Origin: Pseudogymnoascus verrucosus
Taxonomy: Eukaryota
Length of the DNA stretch: 64,000 nucleotides
Direction: 5' to 3' (one strand)
NCBI GenBank assembly: GCA_001662655.1
Contig: KV460225.1
This document shows, in pieces, positions 1 through 49,910 of this stretch (position 1 is its first letter; every line of letters starts with the position of its first letter). The translations under genes were made by a program, and so were the position numbers. Below the pieces are notes generated by a model, which saw only the letters and a program-made list of their open reading frames with translations, was not told the DNA's origin and did no database searches.

Positions 1-933
1 CTCCAAGGGTAGCGCGTGTAGCTTCGTTTGTCGGCGGTTCGATCACTTGGTGCTCGGTCGACTTCAGCACGCCATTGAACCAGCGAGAGAGCAGGTCACC
101 AACTAGCCGTTAAGTCAGTCTCAAAAAAATATCAGAAATTTGTTTTCGGTGCTGCAGAAGGGATAAGCGATAAGGGATCAGTGAGCGTTGCATTACATAC
201 CATTTATAATGGCGCAGCCCGGGATTGGTGGCACGTCAAAGAACCGTCCGTCTTTTCCACGAACCTGCAACCCTCCATTGCTGTCATTGAATAGCAATGT
301 CAAAGTGCCATAATCAGTATGTACGCCTGCTCGCACCCGGGTCTCAAACGTATCTATCGTCGTCTCTGGATAATGCAGGACGCGAAAGAAATGGTCCTTG
401 TCCTGCACATACTGCAAAAAGTAGTTCCGCGGCAGCCCGACCTCCTCCGCTAACGTGCTCAGCAAACCGAGATGGATGTCATGGCTCCTCTCAAAGAACG
501 CATTCATATCGGTCCTGAACTCGGGCCAGTCTGCCGGCCACTGATTTGGTCGCGTCACATCGCTGTCATCGCCCAGATCAAACGCCTCCTTCTGGTCTGA
601 GAATTTCGAAGACCCGGAGGTCCGCTCTGGCGAGAACCAGCCGTGGAAGAACTTGCTTTCACCGGTTTCCACCTTCTCCTTTTCAGAGATAGGCTGTGAG
701 AAAAATCGCGCGGCGTGCGCAAAGATCGTCTGCACGGCAGATTCGTCGATGCCGTGGTTTCTGAGGTAGACGAAACCAACGTCCTTCAAGGCCTGAAACA
801 GCTTTCGCTTTTCCACAGAGCTCTCTTCTGCTGTAATGGCGCCATCCGAGTTCTTATAGCCTTCGAGTTTGGAGAAGTCGATAATTGGAAGGTTGGCTGC
901 GGACGAGCTGGTCGTGTTTGGAGAAATAGCCAT
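1..933 (-). CDS. 2-oxoglutarate/Fe(II)-dependent oxygenase (IPNS/DIOX_N family); 3' end runs off the window
   Basis: N-terminal LPIIDFS...GFVYLRNHGI, then RVLHYP and HTDYGTLTLLF...GGLQV. An intron at 200-103 (GTATGT...CTAG) restores NVGDLLSRWFNGVLKSTEH, completing the HxD...H iron triad. Confidence 0.93.
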
Positions 934-1418: not shown

Positions 1419-3162
1419 ATGTTATTTCAATCTCGTCTTCCCAAACTGGCAATACCCAATACCGATGTGTTCCACTACCTCTTTCATCAGGGGCGCAGGA
1501 GCTATTCTCGAGAGCGGATTCTCTATCGAGTAGACGGCTCGGACGAGACTCTTACATTGGCACAGCTGGAAGAAAGAAGCGAGAAGCTTGCTAAGGTCTT
1601 GATTGCTTCGTACTCAATCAAGCCTGGAGACGTAATTACAATTCTCGCGACAGATAGTGTAAGTTGAAATCGGAAACCACACTACAAACCCAAGAAACTT
1701 TTCTAATCGAGCTCTATAGATCAACTTTCCCATCGCATTTTTTGCAATTCTGGCAGCTGGAGCAACTGTGTCTCTGATTCCCATCCAGAAAGACCTTGGG
1801 TATCTGGATGTTGCTGGGAGACTTGTGCAATCTGGTTCCAGGTTGATTTTCACAGACCAGGCGCTCTTGAGCATTGCAGAAACTGCGTTGGCGATCATTG
1901 GCGTGATTCCAGTGATTACTTTGGAGGAGGTCGATTCCAGATTTCCCAGATATCCACATCTCGATGTTCTCCTGAAACAGGAAGTCAGCGCTCCGAGGTT
2001 TCACCTCAACAGTGTAAGCGATTCTAGAAAGCACATTGCTTTCATCAACAGCACCAGTGGATCAACGGGAAAGATGAAGTCGGTTCTAACATCCCATGCA
2101 CATTTTATTGCCGTGATGGATGCGACTCGGGCCACCGTTCCCGAGAATACCAACCCAGAAGAGGATGTTTGGACATCCACGATCTCTCTCGGATATTACA
2201 TCTGCGGCAAGCTCTTCATGGGGTTGAACATCCTACTCGGCATTCCAGTTGTTCTACTGAAGAAGCCTCTTGATAATACCTCCCTGGACGTTATCACTCA
2301 ACACAACATTACCTTTCTATTCATTACACCCACGCTCGCAGCCCAGATCGCGAAGGCCGATACAACAAACCAGGACTTCAGCAGCATTAAGTGGTTGCTT
2401 TCAGCAGGTGCTCCCATGCATGAAAAGCTGCGATGTTCGGTTTCTCAGCAGCTGAACGGCAAGCATCTAACTCTCGAGTGGGGCACGACCGAGACCATGC
2501 TTCTTGCTATACAAGTCGATGAGCAGACTTGCGTTCCTGGCTCAAGTGGTACACTGACCAATGGAATTGAAGCGAAAGTGATCGACACGGAGACCGGCGA
2601 GGAACTTGGTCCTGGTGAAGAAGGGGAAATCTTGGTACGCAATAGTCTCTGTCCGTTCGTGGGCTACAAAGACAACGACGAAGCCAACAAAGATTTTGAT
2701 TCCGAGGGCTTCTTCCACACAGGCGATGTTGGATACCTGGACAGCACATGCAATGTCTTTATCAAAGACCGCCTCAAAGAGCTGCTCCGAGTAGGCGAAG
2801 GCTACGGATCCAGAATTTCGACTTCGGATTTGGAATCTGCCCTGTTTGATCATCCAGCCGTTGCTTCCGCTGTAGTGGTAGGGATCCGTGACGAATCAAC
2901 ACAAATCTACCATCCGACTGCGTTCGTGATTCTGCAGCCAGGCTACGATGCAAGCAGTGAAACCGCGAAGGAGATTGAGAGGCACACGACACGGGAACTG
3001 ACAGGCCTTAAACAGTTGTCTGGTGGAATTTATTTCGTGATTAAGTATCCTACGGTGGGGTTCAAGATCAACCGTGGAAAACTGAAGAGTTTGATTCATA
3101 TTGAGGAGGGGCAGGTGAAAACTTCGATGACGCATACGAGACTGCTTGAGGTGGCTGTTTGA
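1419..3162 (+). CDS. ANL-superfamily adenylating enzyme (4-coumarate-CoA-ligase-like), 2 exons, ~560 aa
   Basis: Exons 1419-1658 and 1720-3162 (GTAAGT...TAG, in frame). Motifs NSTSGSTGKMKSV, GTTET, GEILVR, GFFHTGD, DRLKEL and a C-terminal K-I-N-R. Confidence 0.9.
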
Positions 3163-4093: not shown

Positions 4094-5460
4094 ATGACAT
4101 TTGTAATGAGATCGCTCCTAGCTTGCAAAATCGGAATTAGACTAATGACGTCCAGATTGCCGTCAGTACTCTTCAACAGTACCCGAGGAGGGATGTCGAT
4201 GAAGTCGTTGAGCCGATCAATGGGCGCACTCTATACAATATGCCCTGGGATCGGAAGTCATGGTCTCAACGCATCCCAGCACAGGAAATTCAGTATCCTG
4301 ACCCGCTTGCCCTTGAAAGCGTCTGCCAAACGCTGCATTCCCTGCCCCCTCTTATTGAGGCTGGAGAAATCGAGAGGGCGCGGAATCTTGTGATAGAAGC
4401 TGCCAGTGGAAAAGCTTTTCTTATCCAAGGCGGAGACTGCTCGGAGCGCTTCGACGATGTCAAATCAGACATCATTCGGCAGAAGGTGATGCTGCTGAGA
4501 GAGCAGTCCACCAGGCTCAGCAAAGGACTCGGCCTGCCAGTAGTACAGTTTGGGCGCATTGCAGGACAATACGCCAAACCGCGGTCCTCCCCTTTTGAAT
4601 CTCTGCCAGATGGGACTTTGATCCATGCCTTCCGTGGCGAGAACGTCAATGGCTTCAGTCTTCATCAACGGCTGCCAGATCCGCAACGTCTTCTCTTTGG
4701 ATACTTCTACGCGGCAGCAGCATTAAACAGCATTGGCCATCTCGAAAAAGAAGAGAGGCGGAAATCGACCATCTCTAGCTTCCCGTTTTTCACCGCGCAC
4801 GAAGCACTTCACTTGCCCTACGAGTCCGCACTGACGCACGAAGATTATAATCACTCCGCGGCTTTCGTTTGGGTTGGTGAGCGAACACGCCAGCTTGAAG
4901 GCGCACACATAGAGTATCTGCGTGGCCTCCGGAATCCCATCGGCGTCAAGATCGGGCCCACAACGCAGCCCGAAGAACTTGTCGCTGTCCTCAACCGGCT
5001 CAGTCTCAACAAGTGGGATTCAAAACGCATCGCAATAATCACGCGCCTCGGCAGCAAAAACGTCGTCGACGTCCTTCCCCGCTTAGCACAAGCCGTCCGA
5101 GACTCCGGCCTCAGCCCAGTCTGGGTCTGCGACCCCTGCCACGGCAACACAGTTGTAGTTGGCGGCGCGGTCAAGACACGGGTCCTGAAAGATATAATCG
5201 ACGAGGCCACGCTTTCATACGCTGTTTTGCGGGAAACAGGGTGCTTCCTAGGCGGCTTGCACCTGGAGCAGACGGGAGAGGCGGTGTCGGAATGTGTAGA
5301 CCGCTACCCAGCACCCGGTGATGAGGGGTTATTAATGGAAAATTATAACTCCTTGTGCGATCCACGTTTGTCTGGAGAACAGGCCCTCCGTGTGATTGAC
5401 AGTTTTTTGGCCTTTGTTGAGGCGCTTGAGGATAAGAATGTGGTTGCAAAGACTAGCTAG
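4094..5460 (+). CDS. Class II DAHP synthase, short form
   Basis: QGGDCSE, GRIAGQYAKPRS, TAHEAL, WVGERTRQ, NPIGVKIGP, CDPCHGNT, KTR, GGLHLE, CDPRL. A probable 9-nt first exon (4094-4102) and intron 4103-4155 (GTAATG..ACTAAT..CAG) join in frame to the ORF at 4240. Confidence 0.95.
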
Positions 5461-5548
5461 AGTGTGCTTTGGAAACTCCTGGGGAGGAAAAGAACAGCGA
5501 CATGAGAACATTTCAGACAGATCAAGTTTTTGTTGAATAGAACGTATT

Positions 5549-5623
5549 TTTTCTAGTCCACCGGCCAATGTTGACCATTCGACAATGGTCCAGTCCACTG
5601 GTGAATGGCCTAAGCCACCCGCC
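5549..5623 (+). repeat. Left terminal inverted repeat
   Basis: TTTTCTAGTCCACCGGCCAATGTTGACCATTCGACAATGGTCC... matches the reverse complement of 7807-7881. Confidence 0.9.
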
Positions 5624-5922
5624 CATACGAACATTGGCCAGTCGAATGGACCGTTGGCCAATGCATTCTCACATTGGCGGGTGGCCTACCAGTCGCCAAT
5701 GAGCGCTGTGCGAGATTTTCACATAACTATTCACATAACTATTCTGTCGTCCTCCCAATGTTTGACTGTCTATAACTGTAACACATAACCGTTATAATGG
5801 AAGCACATGTTATTACTTCTATCAACTTATTTCCAAATGATGTGCGTACTGCATTCCAGGCTTATATCCAGGCCCCAAAATACAACAACCGTGAGCGGCT
5901 TCCACATGCAAAATGGCGATAG

Positions 5923-7638
5923 ATGCATATATTCATCGACAACCCAACCTTGAAGCCGAAGACTCCCGCTGAATCGAACTTAAAGCACCATCCCCTTACG
6001 GAATTATACCTCACCAACAGACGGCTTTATCGAAACGCTGATGATAAATATAAGGAACCAAGATATGTAGTTCCAGAAAGCGAAGCCCTCGACCCCATTA
6101 TCAATGAGCATCTACAGCTTCTGCACGCCGGCCGAGACAAGGTGTGGGCAGCTATTCAGAAGAAGTACTACGGAACCAACTGTCAAGAGGTGATCTTTGC
6201 GTTGAAGCTATGTAAGAACTGTACTTTGAATGGACCTTCTGCAACAAAAGCGCCGCTGGTTCCCATTATTACTGGACGTGCATGGGAAAGGGTACAGATC
6301 GACCTCATCGATATGCAGCATGAGCCTTCAAGACAGTCCAAGCAGATATTACATATAAAAGATCACTTCAACAAATACACGCAGCTATATCCGTTGAAAT
6401 GCAAGAATGCAGAGCCTATTGCGGACGCCTTTGCTCTTTTCATTGCAGCGTTCCTGCCTCCAAAGATCATGCATGCAGATAACGGGAAGGAATTCAAAGG
6501 GGCTCTCTTGATTCTACACCGGAAATATGGAATCCAAGTTATCAATGGAGCGCCCCGCTCACCGCAGACGCAAGGCTTGGTCGAGCAGGCTAACGGAGTT
6601 GTGGAGGCCAAGTTACGGGCTTGGAAAATGGATAACGGGTCAACTGAGTGGGCTGATGGTCTATTGGAGGTCACGCTGGCCAGAACAGGCAAAAATACTG
6701 GATGTGTACCAGCAGAACTACTATTCAGAGAACGCACATTATACACGGGCTGGCTAAGTAGCCAGGCACAAAAGGATCTTACTATCGGAGTCCCTCAAGA
6801 GGATGCAATGCAGGCTCTGGTATACAGTATGCCAGCTCCTCCTGTCGATGAATGGTTCCAGCTAGAGCTGGAGCTTGAGGATCGTGCCCAAAACGAGTCT
6901 CACATTGATTCTCAGCTCCGGAGTCAGTGCCACAACTTGCGTGAGAACAGCCAGTTGCGTGAGAGCCAGTTGCGTAGGAGTCAGCGCCAGATCGAGCATC
7001 GGAGCAAGCACCAAAGTGAGAGTGAAAGCGAGTATGACAGCGAGAGCGAGCATACTGATGCCGACCGTGAGAGCGAGCATGATTCCGACCTTGAAACCAT
7101 CACTGTACAACCAGCCGATCCAATAATTCAAAATGCTCAAAAGTGTACGCAAAAAGCAAGGGCCCTGATGGCACGCAAATACACAAAGAGGAACGATACC
7201 CAGCACTTTGATACGGGATATATAGTCACATTGAAGGTCCCTCAAGAGGATAGGACATTGACTGATAATAGACGCCTATTTGCACGCATATTGGATGAAC
7301 CCTACTCCCACAGATATAAAGTTATAACAGTATCAGGTATTATAAAACGTCTTATACCAACGAAGCAGCTGGGAGCTGTAGTGCGGTCTCTATGGGCAGA
7401 CACCGTTATCCCAGATTCGGAACAAGAGGTCACGCTTGGGCAGGCTGCAAGTGATGCTTCTACAAGCTCTCGAGTAGGGGTATCATGCCAATGTAAGGGA
7501 TCTTGTGATACGAAGAGATGTAGGTGTTATAAGGAGAATAAGCAGTGCAGCGTACACTGCCATAGAGACGATCATGACTGCGGGAACTTATCAGGTTTGG
7601 CTACACGTACAGAGCTGGCTTTGGTCGAGAAGGTGTAG
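5923..7638 (+). CDS. Integrase-like transposase (H2C2 finger, rve DDE core, C-terminal Cys-rich CXC-like domain); ancestral start probably 5797
   Basis: EH..LHAG...CKNC finger; QIDLID / HADNGKEF / QGLVEQAN DDE triad; C-terminal CQCKGSCDTKRCRCYKENKQCSVHCH. Confidence 0.88.
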   Translation: MHIFIDNPTLKPKTPAESNLKHHPLTELYLTNRRLYRNADDKYKEPRYVVPESEALDPIINEHLQLLHAGRDKVWAAIQKKYYGTNCQEVIFALKLCKNCTLNGPSATKAPLVPIITGRAWERVQIDLIDMQHEPSRQSKQILHIKDHFNKYTQLYPLKCKNAEPIADAFALFIAAFLPPKIMHADNGKEFKGALLILHRKYGIQVINGAPRSPQTQGLVEQANGVVEAKLRAWKMDNGSTEWADGLLEVTLARTGKNTGCVPAELLFRERTLYTGWLSSQAQKDLTIGVPQEDAMQALVYSMPAPPVDEWFQLELELEDRAQNESHIDSQLRSQCHNLRENSQLRESQLRRSQRQIEHRSKHQSESESEYDSESEHTDADRESEHDSDLETITVQPADPIIQNAQKCTQKARALMARKYTKRNDTQHFDTGYIVTLKVPQEDRTLTDNRRLFARILDEPYSHRYKVITVSGIIKRLIPTKQLGAVVRSLWADTVIPDSEQEVTLGQAASDASTSSRVGVSCQCKGSCDTKRCRCYKENKQCSVHCHRDDHDCGNLSGLATRTELALVEKV

Positions 7639-7706
7639 ACACGGAAATAGCGTGCAAGGGCAGATACAGCTGGTAATATAGCATAGATGAAATCACTTTA
7701 CAGCCT

Positions 7707-7780
7707 GTATCAGTATGTCAGTATCACATCGGGTGCCAGTATCACAGTCAGTATTGGTATCACAGTCGGTGTCAGTCTTC
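7707..7780. repeat. Degenerate ~18-bp subterminal tandem repeat (GTATCACAGTC core) inside the transposon
   Basis: gtatcagtatgtca-gtatcacatcgggtgcca-gtatcacagtcagtattg-gtatcacagtcggtgtca. Confidence 0.7.
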
Positions 7781-7806
7781 CTACTTATTATTAATCTACT
7801 GGCATT

Positions 7807-7881
7807 GGCGGGTGGCCTTGGCCATTCACTAATGGACTGGACCATTGGCGAATGGTCAACATTGGCCCGTGGACTGGAACA
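7807..7881 (-). repeat. Right terminal inverted repeat
   Basis: Reverse complement reads TGTTCCAGTCCACGGGCCAATGTTGACCATTCGCCAATGGTCC... Confidence 0.9.
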
Positions 7882-8141
7882 TATTTGAATTGCATGAATA
7901 ATTGACATTCAGAATAATTGATATTCAAACTGAAAGCATGGTATTCAGAAAAAGAGATTGTACACTGTCTGACTATTGAAACTTGACTCGCACTTGCAGC
8001 TATAAGCACCCACACACATTCAAGGTTCAACCAGAGGGGCCAATAGAAATATTTGTATAGGTAGTCAGTCTTGCATCTTAACTCTCAAAGAATTAACGTT
8101 TACTACTACCGCAGCAAAATTTAAAGCAAATTTTAGCCATC

Positions 8142-9629
8142 TCAAACAGTCTCTTTCAACTCCCCCTTCACCAACTGAGCGAAATCCAAAGACTCCTTAA
8201 ACTTTCCTCCAATGATAACAAATCGCCCCCCGAACATCTCAGGAAACGATTCCGCCTCCGCTATACCCTCCTTGCCTTCAGCCAAGAATACATTATGGGG
8301 ATAGAGCTTTCCTAGCAATGCGAGCCGGATGAGGGAGTTTGTGGCAAATAAAATGTGAGTATCGGCATCAGTCGAAGAGACAAGTCCCGGCAGATCCAGG
8401 ACGTTATTTATTTTGTGGACAATACTTGTTATTTCCCCAATGGGCGGTGCACTCGTTTGAGTATTTCCGGGCGCGTGTTGTAAATGTGTACTAAAGCGCC
8501 ATCCACGCGCAACCTGGCCTACATCAACTGACAAACAGCTGCCCTCAGGGACATTCAACCGCAGCTTGAGCAGTCCCCTATTGTCTGGAGATTTCGAAGA
8601 ATTCTCGACAGCGAGTGAGTACTTTGTACCGACAGAAGTTCCAAAGGAGGTTTGGCTGGTGATCACATCGATATCCTGGGAGATCTCGGTTCTTTGAGCA
8701 GTGTAATAATCAGGATACTCGTAGTCAAACAAGATTGGGTTTTCTGATTCCTCTATCTGAGTTGGGTAGATCCTGAGTAGGCGAATGGATGAAGACCCGA
8801 ACAGAAAGGCTGGAAGGACGACAAAGCTGGAGTACTGGAAACCATAACCGCCAGTAGGAAGATCTGGGGCAGTGAACGCCTTGGCAACTTCAACCAGAGT
8901 CTTCTGCGAGACAGCTCGTGTTAAGCATTCCACGAGCAATGCAGAGCGAGCTTTCTCAAACTTCCTTAGACCAGGGCCGGATTTTGACTTTTGAATCTGG
9001 AACCGAACATCTTGATAATTCTCGAAAGGAAGAAGAGCGTCGCGCAATAGAACCATTTGATGTAGATACTCATTGAATAGTTGCATAAGCTGGCCATTGC
9101 TCCGTCGTCCCATAAGAAGGTTCGCAACAGCACGCGTCCACAAATGACCTTCACAAGGACTGCGAATATCGATGTTCAAGTTTGGATTTTCCAAGTCCAG
9201 TTTCCGAGCTTGTTCAACAAGGTAAATTCCAATCTTGTTTGCCTGAGCTTGAATTTCCTGTCGAGACGGTTCTCCTTGGGTGTCCTTGATAGGCATAGTG
9301 GACTCCCGGGAATTGGTCGACAAAGAATTCGCCAAATTATCAAGCAGAAGCTTCTTCGAGGATGGATGTCCCTGCGGATCATTTCCAAGCTTTGACAGAA
9401 CGGTCAAAAGGAGAGGAGTAACACCGGTTATAATCTCAGATGGTGTGAAGACACCTTCAGGAAGATCCCATTCTGTCGTCTGCGCCCGATATATCTGGTT
9501 GCTGGAAGACATGAATGATCTTGTTGCCCCAGATGCAGTGGTACTGGTTATGGGTGTAGCGAATTGACCAGCAATAATGCCTCCGAGACAGCTTGCAAGT
9601 CGTGCGATTCGATGAAAGCTTCCTATCAT
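8142..9629 (-). CDS. Hypothetical protein A (unrecognised family, paralog of 14554-16176), intronless, ~495 aa
   Basis: Long ORF with first ATG at 9629. Shares IRSPCEGHLWT, LHQMxLLRDxLLPFENY, FTAPDLxxGGYGFQYS, LFDYE, SVDxGQxxRGxR and ALLGKLYPxNV with protein B. Confidence 0.85.
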   Translation of the reverse strand: MIGSFHRIARLASCLGGIIAGQFATPITSTTASGATRSFMSSSNQIYRAQTTEWDLPEGVFTPSEIITGVTPLLLTVLSKLGNDPQGHPSSKKLLLDNLANSLSTNSRESTMPIKDTQGEPSRQEIQAQANKIGIYLVEQARKLDLENPNLNIDIRSPCEGHLWTRAVANLLMGRRSNGQLMQLFNEYLHQMVLLRDALLPFENYQDVRFQIQKSKSGPGLRKFEKARSALLVECLTRAVSQKTLVEVAKAFTAPDLPTGGYGFQYSSFVVLPAFLFGSSSIRLLRIYPTQIEESENPILFDYEYPDYYTAQRTEISQDIDVITSQTSFGTSVGTKYSLAVENSSKSPDNRGLLKLRLNVPEGSCLSVDVGQVARGWRFSTHLQHAPGNTQTSAPPIGEITSIVHKINNVLDLPGLVSSTDADTHILFATNSLIRLALLGKLYPHNVFLAEGKEGIAEAESFPEMFGGRFVIIGGKFKESLDFAQLVKGELKETV

Positions 9630-10459
9630 GGTCAAAATATTAGGTCAGCACGATGAATAAATTATGACGAGTAATGCTGGACGGAGTAGCAAATACTACA
9701 AGTTAATGAAGACCTACTCTATTCACTCAATATGTGAGATTAAGACACTCTAACAAGCAGTGACACTTGGAAGAATTGGCGAACGGGTTTTGGGAAGAAG
9801 AAGTAGAGGAACTTAGGCTGGTAGAGTATATACAAACAACAGAAGATATCGTGGATGTGGTACAGATGATAGGAGCAGAGCCAGAGCACAGACTGTAAAC
9901 AATGCTGTTGCTATATTAATTACATAGGTGTGCCGATGCACTTTTGCCAATCTCCATCACCTCCTCATTTCTCCGATTTAGATTAATCGGTGAGACATGG
10001 AGTTGGATGGTACGGTTGTTTCTTGCTATACTCGATATGTTCCGTTTGTACCTCACTGTTCAATCTACGTAGTAAATTAAGCGACGACATTGCATAACCT
10101 CGAACAACTAAAGTCCGACGATTACGCTTCGACCTTCGAATAAATAGTCATGTCAACTCCGACCGATGATGTGACTACAACTCTAGAGTAGCTATTGGAA
10201 TAAGCGACAACAAGAAGGAAACCGCCAGGAATGCATCAGGAGCCAAGACTAAATATCTCCGTCCTACATCCCACTACTAAAATTATATCTCGCCGCGTAG
10301 TTTATAAGTATGTGTTATATCTTCTTCGATGCTTACAGTAAACACAGTGACTTGAATTCCTGAAATATATATTCCCAATCAACACATTGTCACGTCACGT
10401 GATATACTCTTCGTCCACAGCATCTAGGACTTCTTTTGTTATTGATCAAGCTCTCCAAG

Positions 10460-11504
10460 ATGGCTTCAGAAACACTCACTTACCCTCCATACGAGAATAC
10501 AGCTTCGAAAACGATTCTCAAAAGCAACGCTTTTAGGGGCACTGAGGGAGTCTACATGCTCCCTCACCATGCCAAAGAAATCGACAGATTGACGAAGCAG
10601 CATTTATTCATGCGAAGCACGACTGAAAATTTGCAGCTCGCCAGTCCAATAACTTCTGGTGCTAAGGAGCTTCGTGTTCTTGATTGTGGCTGCGCCGATG
10701 GTAAGTCGTGAGATGTCACAAGAGCCCATTATATTACAGATATTTACTGATCGTCCAAGGCACGTGGCTCAAAGATCTCGAAATCCTCTATCCCCAGATA
10801 AAGTTCGATCGTCACGGCGTCGATATCGGATCTGATCTGTTTCCTCAGCACTCCAACATCGATCTGCGCCCGCACAATATCACCACGCCTTTCCCTGCTT
10901 CCTGGGAATGGAACGACTCCTTCGATGTCATACATCAACGTCTTCTTGTCTGGGGCCTTAAGCTATCCCAATGGTCCCAAGTCCTCCGCAATCTCTACAC
11001 AATTCTCAAACCAGGTGGCTACATACAGCTTGTTGAGATCGAATTCATCGATCCCGCGAACCCAGCCACGCTACCACAACTGCACAAACAGGCATTGATG
11101 CAGAAATGGTCAACCGCGAGTTTCGGAATGGATATTGACATCGCCTACAAGCTTGGCAATTTGCTGAAGGAAGCAAACTTCACAAATGTGACAAAGGTCC
11201 AGTTTGCACATGGCTATGGTGCAAAGGCCCGAAGTGCGGCGCAGCGTGACGTAAGCGCTGAGTTGTGGGTGGAGTGTTTCCGTAGTTTGGACACGAAGAT
11301 TCCTGCTGGTAAGATATTATTATTTGTTCTCTACTTGACAGTGATGCTGATTGGGGTACAGAGGGTGGGATTCCGGGCGTTGCGAAGGATGCGAAAGAGT
11401 TTCATGAGTTCTTGGATAGCTTGGAGACAGAGATCAAGACATTTGGTTATGAGCCAAAGCTCAATTTTGTGTATGCGCAAAAGCCAGTGTCGCCCGATAT
11501 ATAA
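10460..11504 (+). CDS. Class I SAM-dependent methyltransferase (fungal LaeA/UMTA-like type), 3 exons
   Basis: Exons 10460-10700, 10760-11308, 11362-11504. YMLP..EIDRL, VLDCGCADGTW, GVDI, FDVIHQR, LKPGGYIQLVE, terminal YAQKP. Confidence 0.9.
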
Positions 11505-12068
11505 GTTAGTGATAGTAAACACTAGATAAGACGTATATACATCTCGAGTGAACAAAGTACTCTAAATCGATGTCAGAAGCTCTTGTCGACAAAGGCCACA
11601 ACGAGACACCGTTCCCCCAAACGGCATGAACTGCTGATACGATAACGGGTAACCGCGGTCTCTGCTGTCCGCGCTACCCATTCGTGCTAATCTTACCCAT
11701 CCGTGCTACCCACGGAGGAGATACCATAAGTTTGGCCAACGTATCTCAAGCCACATATCGCATCTTATTGCACAATCGCCCCAGCAACATCAGTAGCGCT
11801 TTTGAAGTACCTGCCTTTTCTTCTTGTTTTTTTAAATAATCGAATTTGCATAGCTTTATTACATGATGGCTCAACGAAAGATAGATGACATTTACCAAAA
11901 TTACCGAAATTACGAAAGAAAGATCACGTTTTATCCCAATAATTCAGAATTCGTCCGTCGTTGGTGCAGCTTCGCCTAAGTTACTGAAACAGATGTTCAC
12001 CTTCACCTTCACCTTCACGCGTTCACGATTTACATGTGGTATTGGGAGTACCATAAACGACCAACCTT

Positions 12069-14202
12069 ATGCCGGACTCTACTCTCCCCCCCGAAAGAGA
12101 ATCGTACACTTGTGGGATTTGTGGCAAGAATTTTGATCGAAGTAGGTATTTTCTGGTTAATGGAATAGCTTTCCTCAGATGGGCTGCCCATCACATCTCA
12201 CTTACTCCTCATAGGAGATCTACGGAATCGACATAAGCGCCGATGTATTCGTTCAATCTCGAACCCGCGAAAGTCGAAACAGAAATCTTGTTGCTCTTGC
12301 GCAACTTCTAAGCTGAGTTGTGATATGAGGCTTCCATCTTGCTCTCGGTGTACCATTCGAAAAATAAGCTGCGAATATGCTTCCACGACTGGTAAGCGGG
12401 AAGAGAAGAAACCTGCCGGCGATTTGGAGAACCTTTCAGATGCAAGTGACCAAACAACTTCAGCTCTCGAGAACTCTTCCGCAAAGGAAAAAGACGTCCA
12501 AAATCAAGCGTATTCGAGTCTGCATACCCATCTTCCCGTTGACGATGCCCGGGCGGCCACAATTATGTCGTTGTCATGTGATCGAACTGCTGAAAATACG
12601 GCGACATCTAGCCTACGGCCGCCATACAGCAAGTTGAGCGAGTCTCCTAGGCGAGATGAAAGTATGAATAGCAGTGCAGCTCAATCATCAGATATATCGT
12701 CTGGTCACATCATGGAGAAAGAGTTAACCAGAACACGGGTCAATATCGAGAATTTTCAGCATTTCTTGGATTCTGATCCGGTTTTAGAAGTAGCTCTGGC
12801 GGAGACAAGTACCATGGCTCTCTCTCCAGGGTATCAACTTTCAAGTGCTCAATCTCTGTTTCAAATCAATGACACGACTGCTTTATTGGAAGGATTTAAT
12901 AGCCAATGGCTGAATTCGAATGTGGCGAACTTTCAGTCCACGAGTGAACATGATTGGGGCAATTCCGTGACAAACTTGTCCATCGAACCATCACGCGATT
13001 TCGGTTTTAATCTTATGGGATCTTTTGGTATACCGGGAAGCCATACTACTTCGAATGCGTTTCAAAAGATAGCTACGGAATGTCCTGGATCAAGTTTTGA
13101 CACTCCAGCCTGGAAGCCGCCACTTCGGCCTGAAACGCTTGAATATGCGGATAGAGTATCTGAAGATGAACCGTCGTTAGTCGTCCTCAACGGGCCTTCA
13201 AGAATCACTCCCGTCGTTCCTATTAATATCGGCAAAGATGCCCAAGATCGGGATCTGGAAGTTTCTACATTGGATCAAGGAAGTGAATTCACATCATATC
13301 CTGTTAATGGCATATCTTACCAGATGAATTCAAATAAAGATCTGGCTAAGATGCTTTTGGAATTCCCTCAAATGATGGCTCGACCTGGTGGGAAATACCC
13401 ACCATTCGTACACCACAGGCTCTATCGTTGCGAAGAAGGGGATGTGCTGAAGCCATTAGCTATTGCATTTTGTTTTGTGGCCGCCTTGAATGCGGCATTT
13501 CCAAGTGGCAAAGGTTTTGTTCATTCTTTGATGAATGCTGAAAGGGATCAGCTTTTGAAAGGATTCCGCCTGTTGAGGGAGTCTGAGCTTGAAATGATAG
13601 CTACTGTGCATGCCATCTGCGTCTATCAGATTATGGGGTTTTTTGATGACTCGAGCCCGGATTCCGCTCGTTTTGCCGAATTGCAACAACCCTTCTTCCT
13701 TAGGATGGCCCGCCGATTTGTTGCTTCATATATGCCACAACTACGCTCATCTTATGATGATAGCGACTACTCCGAACCAGTTTGGGAGAAGTGGATTTCT
13801 ACAGAGACAGTGCGACGAACTTTCTTCCTTATTCACATTATCAATGTCATCGCTTGCCGAACCGAGAAACAAAACCCATACTTTTATGAGGAGCTTGACG
13901 ACGACCTCGTTATGGACCTTCCGTTGCCAGCCCCAGAGAAGATCTGGAAGGCAAATTCTGCGGCGGAGTGGAAATCAGCTCTTGAGGAAGAACTCCAAGG
14001 TGGTTGGCAAGCAAATAGAACAGCGAGTATGAACTTCAGCGGAAATGGATGGAAAGAAAGTACTGTCAATGGCAGCGAATGGGATCTCAGCGGTGATGGC
14101 ATGTTATCGGGTGCTACCAGAACGAGTTTCTATGAGATCCACCTGACAAATTCGCATGAATTCACAAGGCTTTTGATGCACTGTATTGACCGAAGGAGAT
14201 GA
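12069..14202 (+). CDS. Transcription factor with an N-terminal C2HC/C2H2-type finger plus a Zn(II)2Cys6 cluster
   Basis: Exon 12069-12141, intron 12142-12214. Spliced: YTCGICGKNFDRRDLRNRHKRRC...SCCSCATSKLSCDMRLPSCSRCTIRKISCEY. C-terminal fungal TF region (PPFVH, WEKWI..ETVRRT, LPLPAPEKIW). Confidence 0.88.
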
Positions 14203-14553
14203 GGGTAATATCTGTCGATTTTGACCCAGCTATTTAAACAGAGAATATGAACACAGACGAGATCCTGTACAATGTCAGTGAAATTAGAATAACGAGAAAC
14301 TGTGGAGACTGTTCCTAGTACCTGTCAGTGAAGATACCCTAGTTACTTATTTCGAAGAGAATAGAATTGAATTATACCAAGGCTATAAAAATAATAGAAT
14401 ATCAAGTCTTGATATATGTGTTCAAACAAAGAATAGGTTCCAATGGCTCCATCCATGAAATCTTCCATGCACCTAAGAACCACACACACACCACCCGGAT
14501 CCATCAAACAACTTATTCTTCAGACTATACATAATCTGATTTTCAATGTACCT

Positions 14554-16176
14554 TTAAGTTATATCATCATTACTAAGAGGAGGACGATGATTTTCAAAAT
14601 TCATTATGACAAAGCGAGCACCAAAGTTCTTCCCTACGATATTTGCGGTCTCAGGTGCCTGGTTCTCGTTTAGGAGCACTACATTCTCCGGGTACAATTT
14701 TCCAAGAAGTGCAAACCCGATTACTTGGTTTTTTGCTGGGATGATATGGATCGAATTTGCGTCGTTCGTCAGACTATCAGAGCTAGGTTTGTGGGATAAT
14801 AAAGTGACAAGCCCAGGCTGCGAAAGAATATTAGACGCTTTATGGAGGAAGACATGTATATTCGAAGCTGATTTCGGTCGACTCTCTGATAATTCAGGTG
14901 ATTTTCTGGTGAACCGACTCTCGAAAACGCTACGTTCTGTTTGGTCTTTCTTCGAAGAAGTCTTGTTTTCACCATTGGATATAGTACCGTTTGGGCCTTC
15001 GTGACTCGAAATTGGTCTCGTGGATAAGTTGATATGATGAACGTAACGTTGGCCCCGAGAAATTTGACCAATATCGACGGAAACCAATGTGCCGCGGTCT
15101 ATATCCACCTGCAACTTGAGAATGCGTCTGGTGGAATCGCTACCAGCATTGACCTCGAGTGAGCATTTCGTGCTTTGTGGTTTGAGAGCGAAAAGTGATG
15201 GTGGAGGCCAAGCTCCAGGAGCTACAACTGTTTCAGGCTCAGAAATATTGTTTTGGGGAGCAGTATAGTAGTTTTGATGCTCATAGTCGAAAAGCAGGTT
15301 GCTGCTAGTGTCTTCAAGTCGCGCTGGATGATAGCGAAGAAGGTAGCAAGATCGGGATCCCGAAAGAAATGCTGGAAGGACCAATCCTTGCGAGTATTGG
15401 AATCCGTAGCCACCACTTAGAAGATCTGGCGCTGTAAAGGTTTTGGCAAGATTGACAATTGCCAAGTAAGGGGTTGCGCCAGTGAGACATTGCAAGAGGA
15501 ACCTCTTTCGTGGCTCTTCAGCTCCTCGAAGCCCCTTTTTGGCTTTTGTTGTGATTATCAAGGGCACTTCGTCATAATTCTCGAAGGGCAAAAGCAGGTC
15601 TCGAAGAAGAATCATCTGATGAAGCCATTCGTTGTATAACTCCATTAAGTAACGATTGCTCCTCGAACCCATAAGAAGAGAAACCACCGCCGATGTCCAT
15701 AGATGACCTTCACAAGGGCTTCGTATTCTGAAATTTGCATCGGCCTTTTCGAGACTGAAAGCATCTCGAGCATGTTGAACCAAAACCGTTCCAATGATTT
15801 GAGCCTGTCCTGCAATTTCTCTTCGTGATGTATCGGATGCCCCGTAGGATAAGGGAAGTGATGAGACTCTTCCAGAGGTAGAGAGGATTGCTGTAAGTCC
15901 GCCGAGCAGGGTCTCAAGAGGAGAATCTTCTGGAGGGCTGCTTTGACCAAGAGCACAAACAACAGTCTCCAAGAGTGGCGATACCGCTGCAACCAACTGT
16001 TTGGCCGTATATGCACCTGGAGAAAGTGGATAGTCAACTCGTATCGAGCCCTGATTATCAGAGGGCGCCATCGGCCGTGTTTGATGATAGACTGCAGGTA
16101 CAATGGTTCGCCCAAGAACCAAACCGCCCAGATGCGCAATTTGATAAGCCGTTGCTGTAACGGGCTCGAAGCCCAT
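14554..16176 (-). CDS. Hypothetical protein B (unrecognised family, paralog of 8142-9629), intronless, 540 aa
   Basis: Long ORF colinear with protein A over its full length, plus a low-complexity insertion near the C-terminus. Confidence 0.85.
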   Translation of the reverse strand: MGFEPVTATAYQIAHLGGLVLGRTIVPAVYHQTRPMAPSDNQGSIRVDYPLSPGAYTAKQLVAAVSPLLETVVCALGQSSPPEDSPLETLLGGLTAILSTSGRVSSLPLSYGASDTSRREIAGQAQIIGTVLVQHARDAFSLEKADANFRIRSPCEGHLWTSAVVSLLMGSRSNRYLMELYNEWLHQMILLRDLLLPFENYDEVPLIITTKAKKGLRGAEEPRKRFLLQCLTGATPYLAIVNLAKTFTAPDLLSGGYGFQYSQGLVLPAFLSGSRSCYLLRYHPARLEDTSSNLLFDYEHQNYYTAPQNNISEPETVVAPGAWPPPSLFALKPQSTKCSLEVNAGSDSTRRILKLQVDIDRGTLVSVDIGQISRGQRYVHHINLSTRPISSHEGPNGTISNGENKTSSKKDQTERSVFESRFTRKSPELSESRPKSASNIHVFLHKASNILSQPGLVTLLSHKPSSDSLTNDANSIHIIPAKNQVIGFALLGKLYPENVVLLNENQAPETANIVGKNFGARFVIMNFENHRPPLSNDDIT

Positions 16177-19015: not shown

Positions 19016-20653
19016 ATGCCTCCACGAAAAAGCCCTCAATTAGCTTAAAACGAAGGTCGAATTGCCCTAGCTATTCAGGCTTACCAGAAAGGGCAATTTC
19101 GAAGTCTAAAAGCTGCTACAGATGCGTACGATGTCCCTTATGCAACTACCCATAATCGACTTCATGGACGCGTCGCGCGACACGACTTACGTTCCGCAAA
19201 CCTCAAACTTACTCAAAACGAAGAGTCTAGCCTAGTCTAATGGATAGTATCTATGGATAAACGTGGCCTATCACCTCGAGTTAATACTTTACGACAAATG
19301 GCTAATTTACTCCTCTAAAAACGCGTTACAGATTAAGTTACAGATTCTACAGATCTTACAGTTAGCTGCAATTAGGTCCGTAACTTTGTACAACGCCAAG
19401 AAACCACCCTAAAATCGCGATTCAACCGTAAATACGATTACTAACGAGCTCTATGTGAAGATCCTACAATTATTCGCAATTGGTTTCGACTTGTACATAA
19501 TATTCAAGCAAAGTATGGTATTACAGATGTAGACATTTATAACTTTGATGGGACGGATTTCTAGATGGGAGTTATTACAACTGCAAAGGTGATAACAAGG
19601 TCTAAAAGAGCTAGACGACCTATTACTATATAGCTAGACAAATGATATCCTTAGACTTACGTGGCTTACGGACGTGTTTAAGAAGCATACAAAAGACGTA
19701 CAACTAGAAAATACAGGCTCTTAATACTAGACGGCCATAGAAGCCATAATACACTAGAATTTGACTTATTCTATATATAACATTTGATTATTACACTCTA
19801 TATGCCACTACATTCCTTGCATTTTTTACGGCCTCTAGATATTAGTTGTTTTACAGCTATAAAACAAGCTTATAGATAGCAAATTAAGGGCTATATGTAA
19901 GTTAGCCTAAACCATATTAATAAGCCTAACTTTCTTATAGCATATAACGAAACCTAATAAGAGACTTTAATTCTACGTAACATTTAAAGTAGATTTACAG
20001 CTACTAGCCTTATTCTACACGATCCTAATCATGTACTTAAAAAGCTCTATGTTACTTTATAGATGCTAACTCTACCTATAAACCATCTAGTAGCCTTAAG
20101 TCCTTAGAATCCTAAGACGCCTTATAATATTTAACAGCTAGAGCATTAAACAAAGACAATTAAGGAGTATATTTTGCGTTATACATAGAGCCTACTAAGC
20201 CCTATAGACCTTATACTTAATTAGTTAGTTAAGGGTTATTAAATGGTAATAAATAACACTATTCTTCTTATAGAGGAGAATTAGCTATTATAGTCTAAGA
20301 ACACTAGATAGAAAAAGAAGAAGATAAAAAGGAAGTTGTATATAGCTATAGGAGGAGTCCTATTAGTTTAAGAGGGCCTATAATGCTCTAAAATAGCAAT
20401 TATAGGGCTAGTAGGACTAGAGGTGGTAATTATAGATCACCTATAAGAACTATGAATATATGTACTAAATAAGTGTAGTATATGTAAATCACTAGAGCAT
20501 AATGCTTATAAATGCCTAGAGAGGTCTTGTTCTACTTAGTATAGTTTTATAAGGGCTAGTTTAGTTAGTTTATAATAATATAGATAGGTTATAGGTAGTT
20601 TTTAGGAGGAATTATTAACTTGCTTATATTATTAGCTTACTTATGCATTACGT
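19016..20653 (+). mobile_element. RIP-degraded Fot1/pogo-type transposon, copy 1 (no 5' TIR found, internal deletion)
   Basis: From ATG 19016: EGRIALAIQAYQKGQF..AATDAYDVP, RKYDY*RALCEDP, IYNFDGTDF*MG, LILDGH, and a terminal CxxCx4Hx4C near 20475-20520. Stops are CAA/CAG/TGG-derived. Ends ...TTATGCATTACGT|TA. Confidence 0.88.
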
Positions 20654-20655
20654 TA

Positions 20656-21425
20656 TAATGTACTTTATAGGCAACTTATACACGCCCTACTATTTTTTAT
20701 GTATCTCCCTTCCTTTAACTCTATATATCTTACCTAATAGAGGTCTAATTAGCTTATAAAGAGCAGTAAATTACTCTTATACTCTAGGTGTATAAAGATA
20801 GCTAGTTTTTAAGTTTATAGGCAGCTATAAATGCATATAATATCCCTACCTTAACTCTTTAATATTATGTTAACGGAGGATGTACATAGAGGGGTTTATA
20901 GGCTATAAACTCTAAACTCTTGCCTATAGAGGAGGAAGCTCTTATTAAGTAGATATTGTTAATAGATAAATAGGGCTTACTAGTTAGAAGGAGTTCTATC
21001 TAGTAAATAGTAAATCTACTCCTCTAAAAACAGTTGAATATAGACTATAACAAGTCTCTAATAGTTAGTAAAAACTAGGTCTATACCTTTATATAGTACT
21101 ATACTTCCCTTTAATTAAAGTATAACTATAAGTATAATTACTAGTATGCTAAATATAAGTATCCTATAGTTATTTAAGACTAGTTTTAGCTTATATAGAA
21201 TGTTATTACTAAATATATAATCCTAGATAAGGATATATACAACTTTAATGAGACTAGGTTCTAAATAGGAGTAATTTTAACTATAATAGTTATTATAGGT
21301 TCTAAAAGAGCTAGCTAGCTAGTATCTATTTAACTAGGGAACTATAATTGGGCTATAGTTATTAAATCTATATTATTGTCTAGTTAGAGCTTACTACTAA
21401 TGATTATCTTTAAAGGGAAGGTTTA
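20656..21425 (+). mobile_element. Heavily RIP-degraded, 3'-truncated Fot1/pogo-type transposon, copy 2
   Basis: Decayed start at 20737 (ATA). Very TpA-rich. Recognisable IYNFNETRF*IGV and IIFKGKV relics. Confidence 0.78.
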
Positions 21426-21727
21426 ATCCACTTGCTTTTGACTCTTAATCGTGCTAATAGGCATAGTGTGGAATCTGAGCCCCTTGCCTCCTTGAGGGTG
21501 AGCGGGGTGAGGCGACGAATCGTTTTCGTGTCAATTTCTCGTCAGTCTTCTGACTAGCATACCCTTAGGTAATATAGTTTCAGCGTAGCGTAAGTATATA
21601 TTTCGGGATCATGGCTAATTGCATAGAGTAAAACCATTAGATCTACTCGCTTTGGCGTGATAACTGGACGTATATTTAGAGATTTGACCCTGACATTAAA
21701 CTACGCAACTCGTGTAAATCAGAAGGA

Positions 21728-23060
21728 CTATCTAGTAGAGCTCGCAGCTGCCTCCTTGGCCTTGATATCTGCCAAGATATTTACCCAGTCTAGAGCGGCA
21801 TGGGTTTCAAAATCAGCACTCCTCAGAGGTGCCCAGCCTAGTGCACGGATCTTGTCACCTGAAGTACGAGCGCTAGAGGTAAAGTTATTAGCGAAATTCT
21901 GCAGTCTTCTACTCGAAATACAAGAGGCTTTGGTAGGGAACATACTTGGAAGCCCAGCCGATCTCGGCCAGGAGATTTTTGCCGCCAGTTAATATTCTAG
22001 TGGCTTCCTCCAGGGAAAGTTGCTTGAGCTCGGTGGTCCTGAGAGCGCCAGCTTCCACGCCAGCCTTTGCGACCATTTGAGCAAGCTCAAGCCATGTATG
22101 ATGGCCATCTTGCAGAAAATAGACCCCATCTTTGCCGTGGGGAATGTCTGCACCTGCACCGCTCAATATCTTCGAGAGAACGAGCTTGTAAGCGCGCGCC
22201 ATGTCCAGGACGTGAAGGTTATCCCAACTGCCAGCACCATCACCAACAACAGGAGTGTTGCCTAGGAGGATTGACTTGCGGATCAGGATAGGTGTGTGGC
22301 AGAACTCGTGAAGCGGATCTGTGCTAATGCCGTAAAGAGAGGGAGACATCAGGATGTACGTCTTGACGCCATACTCGACGCCGACCTCAGTCACAACAAC
22401 ATCGCTGGTACGCTGGGCGTATGGAACGGCCGAGTCTCTGCTCTTCAGGTAAGAGAACATATCATCTTTGTCAGACAAAGGGTAGTTTAATTCAGAGAAT
22501 GTCTTGGAAATAGGTCGATCGGCAATGTTGGATGTGCCAGAAGTCTTTTAGGCGAGTGAGCAGTTGACCCGCGGTAGTATGCGACTGAGAAACTTACGTG
22601 GATGTAGTAGACGTCGTTGCCGGTCTGTTTCTTTCTCTGCGCAAGACCTAATATCAAGGCTCGTGCAGAGAGGGTGTGGAAGCCCGAAGCACAGTGGATG
22701 ACAACTACGAGACGTCAGCAATCGAACTTGAAAATATATTCAATGTCAACGCCTTCTTACCGTCGTGTTGGCTGGCAAGTTCAGCCAAGACATCAGTATC
22801 GTCCAAGCTGTTGAATATTATAGGCTCGAGACCTTTAGCCTTCACAGATGCAGCTCCACTCGCTCTTGTCAGGGCAGAGACGTTGGATTTATTCACCGTG
22901 ATGAAGTCATCGGCGAGAAGAGAATCTAGGACTGCTCCTCCACTGTGCTCGAGGACAAATTAGCATGGATAGTACCAGTCGACATGTGTTGAGAGGATAG
23001 AGGATGGATAACGAACATGTAACCATTTGCGCCTGTTAAAAGAATCCTCATACTCAACAT
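21728..23060 (-). CDS. NAD(P)-binding epimerase/dehydratase (NmrA-like extended SDR), multi-exon
   Basis: MRILLTGANGYI|GGAVL, VIHCASG, YYIH|TSGTS, SPSLYG, WDNLHVLDMARAY, RALGWAP. Confidence 0.85.
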
Positions 23061-49200: not shown

Positions 49201-49910
49201 TTCGGAACCGTGGGCGCAGTAGTCTCCGTTGAGGTAACCGTTCTCGAGAATGGCTGAGAGAGCTGCTGCACCTTATCTAGGTCTATATTGTAATGGTTTG
49301 CAAGGAGAGTCGCATTTGTCTGTCGATGGGAACTTGCGATTCTACGGAAAGTAGCCTGGTAGCGCTGCGCCAGCTGGGTGCCGATCTGGAGTGTCGCGGC
49401 CAGTAATGACAGAGATGTGCTGTTGAGAAGATCGCTCAAGTGAGTGCTGCTCGAATATATGCTTCTATTACCGCAATTCTCGAGTAATATCCTAGAGAAA
49501 TGCAGGATTCGCTCTATGACTTCTCTATCGCCCTCCGGGCCAAACCCAGCCTCGGAAATCTGCTCATCTGTCGCGCCACCCTTTTGCAGGAGTTCGCATC
49601 CAAAATCTTTAACCTGAGGACCATTGTTGAGTGCATAGGTTGCGCAGAAGGTTTCGAGATCGCTGTCGAATCTATTAAGAAGAGGGATCCAGTGGTAGAG
49701 ATCACCTCTGGGAAAAGGCCATCGGGTTGGGAAGTCGGCAAGGGCTTGTGGGAGGGTATGCCATGGTGCTGTCGATGCGTTCTGCACAAACGATTGGATA
49801 TACGGCGACTAATGGAATGTCAGCTCATCTTGGGTTGGATTTCAATAGCATATAGAACGTACCAGCGTCTCCTTGTGCTTTGGTTGTATGGTCTTCAGTA
49901 TCTTGACCAT
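37203..49910 (-). CDS. TOM1: HECT E3 ubiquitin ligase Tom1/HUWE1, multi-exon
   Basis: WPFPRGDLYHWIPLLNRFD, acidic linker, LDALPEELREEV UBM-like repeats, HECT domain (GEEGVDAGGVTREWF, LPTSHTCFN), terminal YFGFA*. Confidence 0.96.

Follow-up and report, generated by a model that had tools for sequence, protein, structure and literature searches.

In a 64,000-nucleotide stretch of Pseudogymnoascus verrucosus DNA (contig KV460225.1 of NCBI GenBank assembly GCA_001662655.1; the whole stretch is referred to as the window), two diverged, intronless paralogs, A and B, were found to belong to an unannotated protein family that is very probably enzymatic. In fungi, members of this family are the signature of a conserved gene cluster that has no canonical core enzyme. 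The family consists of two-domain soluble proteins of Pezizomycotina and bacteria, and our tentative explanation, drawn from sequence and gene context, is that its members may handle a small-molecule electrophile, an epoxide-type compound being the likeliest. The two genes are located as follows:

8142..9635, minus strand: paralog A, 497 amino acids (aa) from a TTG, with codon 3 at 9629 as the likely ATG start, giving 495 aa
14554..16176, minus strand: paralog B, 540 aa from an ATG, in an open reading frame (ORF) convergent with a regulator gene

The 495-aa form of A and the complete B were identical to the stored proteins P0098 and P0001, respectively. BLASTP aligned A and B end to end and far beyond chance, with 204 identities over 519 positions (39%; positives 54%; E 9e-106), confirming the initial annotation of this DNA, which had described them as two colinear, diverged paralogs. 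All nine sequence blocks quoted there (IRSPCEGHLWT, LLMGxRSN, NExLHQMxLLRDxLLPFENY, FTAPDLxxGGYGFQYS, VLPAFL, LFDYExxxYYTA, SVDxGQxxRGxR, ALLGKLYPxNV and FGxRFVI) were recovered in the A/B alignment, and B carries a low-complexity insert at approximately residues 385–470. Because neither ORF is interrupted and both align colinearly with full-length homologs from fungi and bacteria, the genes can indeed be regarded as intronless. A methyltransferase gene, transcribed divergently from A, and the regulator gene both sit between them, again as described. When compared to the orthologs in the colinear contig L081, a close relative (see below), the ratio of non-synonymous to synonymous substitution rates (dN/dS) was 0.29 for A and 0.16 for B, next to 0.17 for a neighbouring DAHP synthase and 0.34 for the regulator. 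Both A and B are under purifying selection, and with the dS between A and B being saturated, the proposed old duplication under purifying selection was borne out.

Searches of Pfam-A, NCBIfam and PADLOC with A, B and four bacterial members yielded no credible family match at E ≤ 1, in keeping with the earlier statement that the family is unrecognised; the sole profile matches were at chance level (DACND 0.22, CinA 0.18 and EmrA 0.011, the last versus a 563-bit cut-off). Nothing credible was found in the PDB either, by sequence search with B alone (best E 0.0027, on its low-complexity insert) or with a 56-sequence profile (best E 0.12), and profile searches revealed no DNA-binding domain in A or B. 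The AlphaFold model of A reached a predicted local distance difference test score (pLDDT) of 84.4 and a predicted template modelling score of 0.87, and no known fold was clearly recognised in this model. The predicted fold is moreover unrelated to that of alpha/beta hydrolases, and A and B lack an Abhydrolase match in Pfam, Abhydrolase_1 being carried by a neighbouring bacterial gene and not by the family member itself. In the ESM Atlas, B gave a single feature match of 0.75, which is at noise level, and its Atlas model was poor (pLDDT 0.30); one Paenibacillus member gave no usable match there. No longer, fused forms were seen among 7997 scored candidates of 946–2700 aa, although this is weak evidence, and literature searches, including those with twelve locus tags or accessions of members, retrieved no paper on the family. 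As far as these search tools reach, the family is therefore new.

Residue conservation was assessed over 122 sequences from fungi and three bacterial phyla, comprising 66 ORFs of bacterial genome loci and the 56 rows of an alignment (A1), largely of fungal sequences. In the numbering of A, R158, S159, C161, H164, N188, E189, H192, R198, D199, N206, R224, Y264, Y310, R315, D371, Q374, R377, R380 and N448 were each 94–100% conserved, with E227 (92%) and Y445 (86%) slightly lower. Specifically, the conserved Cys (C161 in A, C155 in B) was present in 98% of the sequences, and the residues of an NExxH motif in 99% (N), 100% (E) and 98% (H). As about 20 polar residues are kept at 94–100% across fungi and bacteria, the family is very probably enzymatic, which upholds the initial proposal of a new enzyme family. 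A keeps all of the conserved polar residues and departs at two conserved glycines (F at 271 and P at 465), and B keeps the conserved residues except for R315Q (A numbering); from their sequences, neither of them looks like a dead enzyme. The motifs RSxCxGH and NExxHQxxLLRDxLxPFxN are carried by the helical N-terminal domain (N-domain), and GYGF, VDxGQxxRGxR and LLGKxYPxN by the mixed alpha/beta C-terminal domain. Bacterial members have a median of two Cys, one of which is the conserved one, and are acidic, with a median isoelectric point (pI) of 5.5.

In the bacterial proteins P0217 and P0225, the N-domain was seen on its own, followed in the same ORF by what by eye is a LysR-type helix-turn-helix (HTH) part having its own Met, and P0227 is named a LysR family regulator by NCBI. 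These ORFs could be either fusions or gene pairs without an intervening stop. The occurrence of the N-domain alone before LysR suggests that this domain is an independent unit tied to transcription control.

A search with B retrieved 248 proteins among 8000 candidates scored, and among the 120 matches listed all were named ‘hypothetical’ or ‘uncharacterized’ but one, with a doubtful ‘zeaxanthin epoxidase’ label. Using phmmer over 1.84 billion representatives, 142 matches were found, of which the two distant ones that were looked up proved to be bacterial. Scanning one genome per prokaryotic species revealed 132 encoding loci among 165 pattern matches, mostly in Paenibacillus or Cohnella, then in Streptomyces and relatives, and in a few Pseudomonadota; these bacterial homologs are 33–37% identical to the fungal proteins (E ~1e-60). 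A search with the N-domain only gave 235 matches and showed the fungal family to be much larger than it had first appeared, with conserved ~530-aa proteins in, among others, Aspergillus fumigatus (on 366 contigs), A. fischeri, A. clavatus, A. versicolor, A. thermomutatus, many Penicillium species, Onygenales, Aureobasidium and lichen fungi. In one Paenibacillus solani genome, two members were observed on separate contigs (L032 and L035), one adjoining an HxlR gene and a sugar-binding protein and the other adjoining MFS, HxlR and TetR genes, and family duplication is on this account not confined to fungi.

In trees rooted with bacteria, the fungal sequences formed one clade (100% in the Shimodaira–Hasegawa-like approximate likelihood ratio test, SH-aLRT) that splits into clade I (support 92), with A, B, Cenococcum, Sordariomycetes and lichen fungi, and clade II (support 97), with the Aspergillus 530-aa group. 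The order within clade I departs from the species tree, with for example an Aspergillus sequence nested among Sordariomycetes, and the nearest named relative of A is a Pseudogymnoascus protein. Clade II, in turn, looks vertically inherited. The ~530-aa Aspergillus orthologs P0282, P0310 and P0342 of clade II display an N-terminal hydrophobic stretch resembling a signal anchor, which is absent in A and B. A and B were not sisters in the best tree, although a constraint placing them in one clade was not rejected by the approximately unbiased (AU) test (p 0.074).

The remaining genes and elements of the cluster in the window are the following:

193..933, minus strand: 2-oxoglutarate (2OG)/Fe(II) oxygenase, with DIOX_N and 2OG-FeII_Oxy, the ORF being the main exon
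1768..3162, plus strand: adenylate-forming CoA ligase of the 4-coumarate-CoA ligase (4CL)/luciferase type, AMP-binding E 2e-38, the ORF being the main exon
4240..5460, plus strand: class II DAHP synthase, PF01474 E 1e-121
5546..7884: mobile element with 81-nt terminal inverted repeats (5546–5626 and 7804–7884) and an integrase ORF at 5923–7638
10460..11529, plus strand: LaeA-like S-adenosylmethionine methyltransferase, ATG at 10460, at least two introns, VLDCGCADG in exon 1, main ORF ending at 11529
12105..14202, plus strand: cluster regulator, in which a C2H2-like motif (12105) is followed by a Zn2Cys6 pattern (12289), each recognised by eye

The top PDB match of the oxygenase was the thymine dioxygenase 5c3o (E 5e-36), and those of the ligase were luciferases and 4CL. 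The methyltransferase matched Methyltransf_23 (E 2e-5) with 24.8 bits, under Pfam's 27-bit cut-off, and a Pfam search with the regulator was without match. No polyketide synthase (PKS), non-ribosomal peptide synthetase (NRPS) or terpene cyclase is present in the cluster of the window.

Conservation of this cluster was examined in eight independent fungal lineages, represented by metagenome contigs with usable flanks (L081; L083, L084 and L129; L085; L087; L088 and L089; L090 and L115; L096; and L113), while L082, L086, L107 (short) and L131 (partial match only) were left out of the counts. L081 is colinear with the window, running from B over regulator, methyltransferase, A, DAHP synthase, ligase and 2OG oxygenase to a PDR-type ABC transporter, and its regulator, DAHP synthase and ligase are 70%, 88% and 91% identical to those of the window. 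In L113, which comes from a distant fungus and has a member sharing 99% identity with P0007 of Cenococcum geophilum, the order is ligase, 2OG oxygenase, DAHP synthase, methyltransferase, a single B-like member and regulator, at 36–59% identity (DAHP synthase 53%, ligase 54%, regulator 36–52%). Over the eight lineages, the member has as neighbour a DIOX_N-type 2OG oxygenase in six, a divergent methyltransferase in four, a zinc-cluster regulator in four, DAHP synthase plus ligase in two, and a PDR pump in two (L081 and L083), and there are minimal fungal versions without ligase and DAHP synthase. The family member is thereby the signature gene of a conserved fungal cluster that has no PKS, NRPS or terpene cyclase, and the initial claim of a cluster without a recognised core enzyme holds.

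Comparison of gene orders also bears on the origin of the two copies. L113 reads methyltransferase (–), member (+), regulator (–), and the flipped window reads B (+), regulator (–), methyltransferase (–), A (+), an arrangement consistent with a local duplication that left each copy beside one of the former neighbours. The AU result given above is compatible with this. Most likely, A would have arisen from a B-like gene by such a duplication inside the cluster, after which A and B may have taken different substrates or successive steps.

In L085 (3907–8820) and L096 (4769–7867), the genes seen after the member were a 2OG oxygenase in convergent orientation and an NCS1 permease of the cytosine/purine/uracil/thiamine/allantoin type.

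The bacterial neighbourhoods were of another kind. Among 71 genome loci with a called core ORF, an HxlR gene lies just downstream and convergent in 47, a TetR gene is found in 24 and a major facilitator superfamily (MFS) pump in 20, and the upstream genes vary, none of them being biosynthetic. A tblastn search within 3 kb of the 136 sources with a family match found HxlR in 68, TetR in 48, MFS in 22 and epoxide hydrolase in 14; a LysR neighbour was noted in 10 bacterial loci, and an MFS pump lies directly downstream of the member in ~20 Paenibacillaceae loci. The HxlR partner matches its Pfam family with E 3.7e-31 and the B. subtilis HxlR structure 7bze with E 5e-27. The initial annotation had held that homologs scattered without biosynthetic neighbours would speak against it, and such are indeed the bacterial loci, with their regulators, MFS pumps and hydrolase, but not the fungal ones.

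The neighbours that hint at a substrate were found in 13 actinobacterial loci (11 genome and 2 metagenome), in which a TetR gene, the member and an epoxide hydrolase gene 54–251 nt downstream follow each other on one strand. This hydrolase matches the soluble epoxide hydrolase 7ac0 (E 4.6e-49) and Cif (E 3e-40), and the best full-length match of the TetR partner is the regulator CifR (6nsn; E 3.9e-27 for Streptomyces and 7.2e-36 for Paenibacillus). All 47 near-full-length TetR partners carry a Gly-Cys pair at approximately positions 90–125. According to a study of CifR, its Gly106-Cys107 pair is critical for epoxide sensing, with DNA being released upon epoxide via Cys107, and Cys107 is present in 52% of 938 TetR sequences (PMC10827105).

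Taken together, the explanation that we prefer, as a possibility still somewhat short of an even chance, is that the family protein is an enzyme using its Cys/His/Glu/His site on a small-molecule electrophile, most probably an epoxide-type compound. The site would open or isomerise this electrophile, or consume it in some other way. In bacteria, the member would then be part of an epoxide or electrophile response under a CifR-like repressor, beside efflux pumps and a Cif-like hydrolase. In the fungal cluster, its substrate might be the reactive product made by the 2OG oxygenase next to it, in the course of work on a methylated metabolite; that this metabolite derives from shikimate is what the DAHP synthase and the 4CL-like ligase suggest. 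The role of the protein there could be either a pathway step or self-protection.

A number of observations weigh against this explanation. The epoxide link is drawn entirely from gene neighbourhood, and the Gly-Cys pair is weak evidence because Cys107 occurs in about half of TetR sequences anyhow. As the epoxide hydrolases are 87–100% identical to each other, the 13 hydrolase loci essentially represent one Streptomyces-type lineage, and no epoxide hydrolase was found in the window or in the fungal loci. The HxlR gene is convergent with the member and not divergent from it, which is unusual for a regulator and its target. In the fungi, 2OG oxygenases and methyltransferases are common in clusters of all kinds, L087 has none of these partners and the L090/L115 lineage has the regulator only; moreover, in two of the eight lineages (L085 and L096) the partners are an NCS1 permease and a 2OG oxygenase, forming with the member a trio more suggestive of uptake or catabolism than of biosynthesis. 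Inheritance of the clade II orthologs is broad across Aspergillus and Penicillium, with the A. fumigatus gene occurring on 366 contigs, which suggests a general and not a cluster-specific role for part of the family. Finally, for all members the function is a prediction from sequence and gene context.

A more far-reaching picture, which we consider doubtful, joins the electrophile chemistry to a biosynthetic role: the family, present in fungi as well as in soil bacteria, would have a fold not seen before and new epoxide or electrophile chemistry, being the missing enzymatic partner of CifR/Cif-type circuits in bacteria, and recruited in fungi (and duplicated here) as the defining scaffold-shaping enzyme of an unrecognised class of core-less clusters that make a shikimate-derived product, with A and B working as a heteromer or in successive steps.

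The initial annotation had favoured A and B, acting as a heterodimer or in successive steps, as the best candidate for the missing core enzyme of the cluster. In such a reading they would form the scaffold in a fungal biosynthetic cluster of a new class, from a shikimate-pathway or aryl-CoA substrate and, for instance, through an acyl-Cys intermediate that the 4CL-like ligase would load. For this speaks that, although PKS, NRPS and terpene cyclase are all missing, the cluster has DAHP synthase for supply, ligase for activation, 2OG oxygenase and methyltransferase for tailoring, a regulator and also a PDR exporter (in L081 and L083), with the family member as the one gene common to all cluster versions; the invariant Cys, His and Asn residues and the patchy phylogeny of clade I, typical of cluster genes, are also in its favour. 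However, the bacterial homologs have neither ligase nor biosynthetic neighbours, the minimal fungal versions do without ligase and DAHP synthase, the L113 cluster works with one copy, and clade II looks vertically inherited, so that we regard this reading as unlikely. A role as ‘core enzyme’ is possible as such, and the context fits the processing of a reactive intermediate or self-protection equally well. Since L113 and nearly all bacterial loci have a single copy, a heterodimer is not a family-wide requirement, and members in general are unlikely to depend on one.

It is less probable again that the protein is a non-catalytic ligand- or electrophile-sensing partner of transcription factors, with the conserved Cys as sensor. 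Regulators are the most constant bacterial neighbours (HxlR 68, TetR 48 and LysR 10 loci), fungal members often lie beside zinc-cluster regulators, and the N-domain with LysR-type HTH in P0217 and P0225 and the LysR name of P0227 would agree with such a role. Yet the ~20 polar residues over both domains that are kept across kingdoms are more than a sensor usually needs, the same-strand pairing with an epoxide hydrolase suggests a metabolic pair, and a DNA-binding domain was not found in A or B by profile search. That the family would be a distant relative of the fungal arginine-containing cyclodipeptide synthases (RCDPS), forming a cyclodipeptide from aminoacyl-tRNAs is very improbable: the invariant Cys, the conserved Tyr residues and a DAHP synthase that could supply aromatic amino acids are in line with it, but the essential DDXXE is absent, with NExxH as the only comparable motif, the A. 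thermomutatus and A. versicolor members are other proteins than AnkA and AvaA, no match carries the RCDPS name, and the bacterial members are acidic (median pI 5.5). What probability remains is left to an explanation not yet thought of.

If the preferred reading of an electrophile-handling enzyme is true, an enzyme family invisible to current genome-mining tools marks a conserved fungal cluster that has no recognised core enzyme. Well-studied organisms have members, including A. fumigatus (with a conserved ortholog), many Penicillium, Fusarium and Trichoderma species, Paenibacillus and Streptomyces. The CifR-like and Cif-like partners in bacteria provide a concrete and cheap experimental entry to this unannotated family, and the confident predicted model without a clear fold match makes it a good target for structure determination.

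Elsewhere in the window, the 2.3-kb mobile element sits between the DAHP synthase gene and A, where it is absent from the otherwise colinear L081, the gap between A and DAHP synthase being 2.7 kb in the window versus ~550 bp in L081. Its inverted repeats are 88% complementary, its rve and Integrase_H2C2 matches are under the cut-off, and its ORF has a Cys-rich tail; the inverted ends and gypsy-like integrase presumably resemble those of ‘Ginger’-type DNA transposons. The element is inserted into the cluster and is no part of the pathway. In the right half of the window, which contains housekeeping genes, two adjacent long ORFs (1502 and 2648 aa) on the minus strand at 37310–49787 make up one HECT-type E3 ubiquitin ligase gene of the Tom1/HUWE1 type, with DUF908, DUF913, UBM and HECT domains, and not a megasynthase. 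Introns, Zn2Cys6-type regulators and this HECT ligase gene show the window to be fungal. Between a sugar-transporter gene and an epimerase-like ORF, positions 20001–22000 are AT-rich (GC 0.34 versus ~0.47 nearby), which may be due to repeat-induced point mutation or a degraded repeat.

Of the known systems, the RCDPS enzymes AnkA of A. thermomutatus and AvaA of A. versicolor come first in comparison. These are ~500-aa fungal ‘hypothetical proteins’ with no domain, found in core-less clusters containing a methyltransferase, and in AvaA C193, the DDXXE motif, Y392 and Y515 are essential, that is, one Cys and two Tyr next to the acidic motif (PMC11610942). The family shares with them the size of ~500 aa, the lack of a Pfam domain and the role of hallmark for clusters that have no canonical core enzyme, and differs from them in that the catalytic DDXXE is missing, the conserved acidic motif being NExxH, and in its many acidic bacterial members. 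DDxxE was not found in the A. versicolor and A. thermomutatus members, of which the former has F193, L392 and G515, with a Cys at 179, and the latter is UniRef A0A397H7P6, to be distinguished from what we take to be AnkA, UniRef A0A397HK51. Both species therefore carry the family besides RCDPS. The 98% conservation of the family Cys (C161/C155) does not by this count establish its equivalence to C193 of AvaA. Identity of the family with the known RCDPS was rejected on the absent DDXXE and the non-identity with AnkA and AvaA, the two being set apart by motifs and accession and not by an RCDPS alignment.

The bacterial loci resemble the cifR-cif circuit of Pseudomonas aeruginosa, in that members lie between or beside a CifR-like TetR gene and a Cif-like epoxide hydrolase gene. 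They differ from it in that morB is the first gene of the cif operon (PMC10827105), whereas here the family protein, with a predicted fold unlike that of alpha/beta hydrolases, takes the slot between regulator and hydrolase; no family member was seen in the passages of this account that were consulted. The electrophile-responsive HxlR/DUF24 regulons of Bacillota are similar in that an HxlR-family regulator is the commonest neighbour in Paenibacillaceae, and differ in that the regulator is here convergent with the gene and not divergent. HxlR-type proteins sense aldehydes and quinones. Finally, the fungal loci are reminiscent of core-less (‘unknown-unknown’) fungal clusters, which escape antiSMASH-type rules, as supply, activation, tailoring, regulator and exporter genes are grouped around an unnamed family; the difference is that this family also occurs outside clusters and outside fungi.

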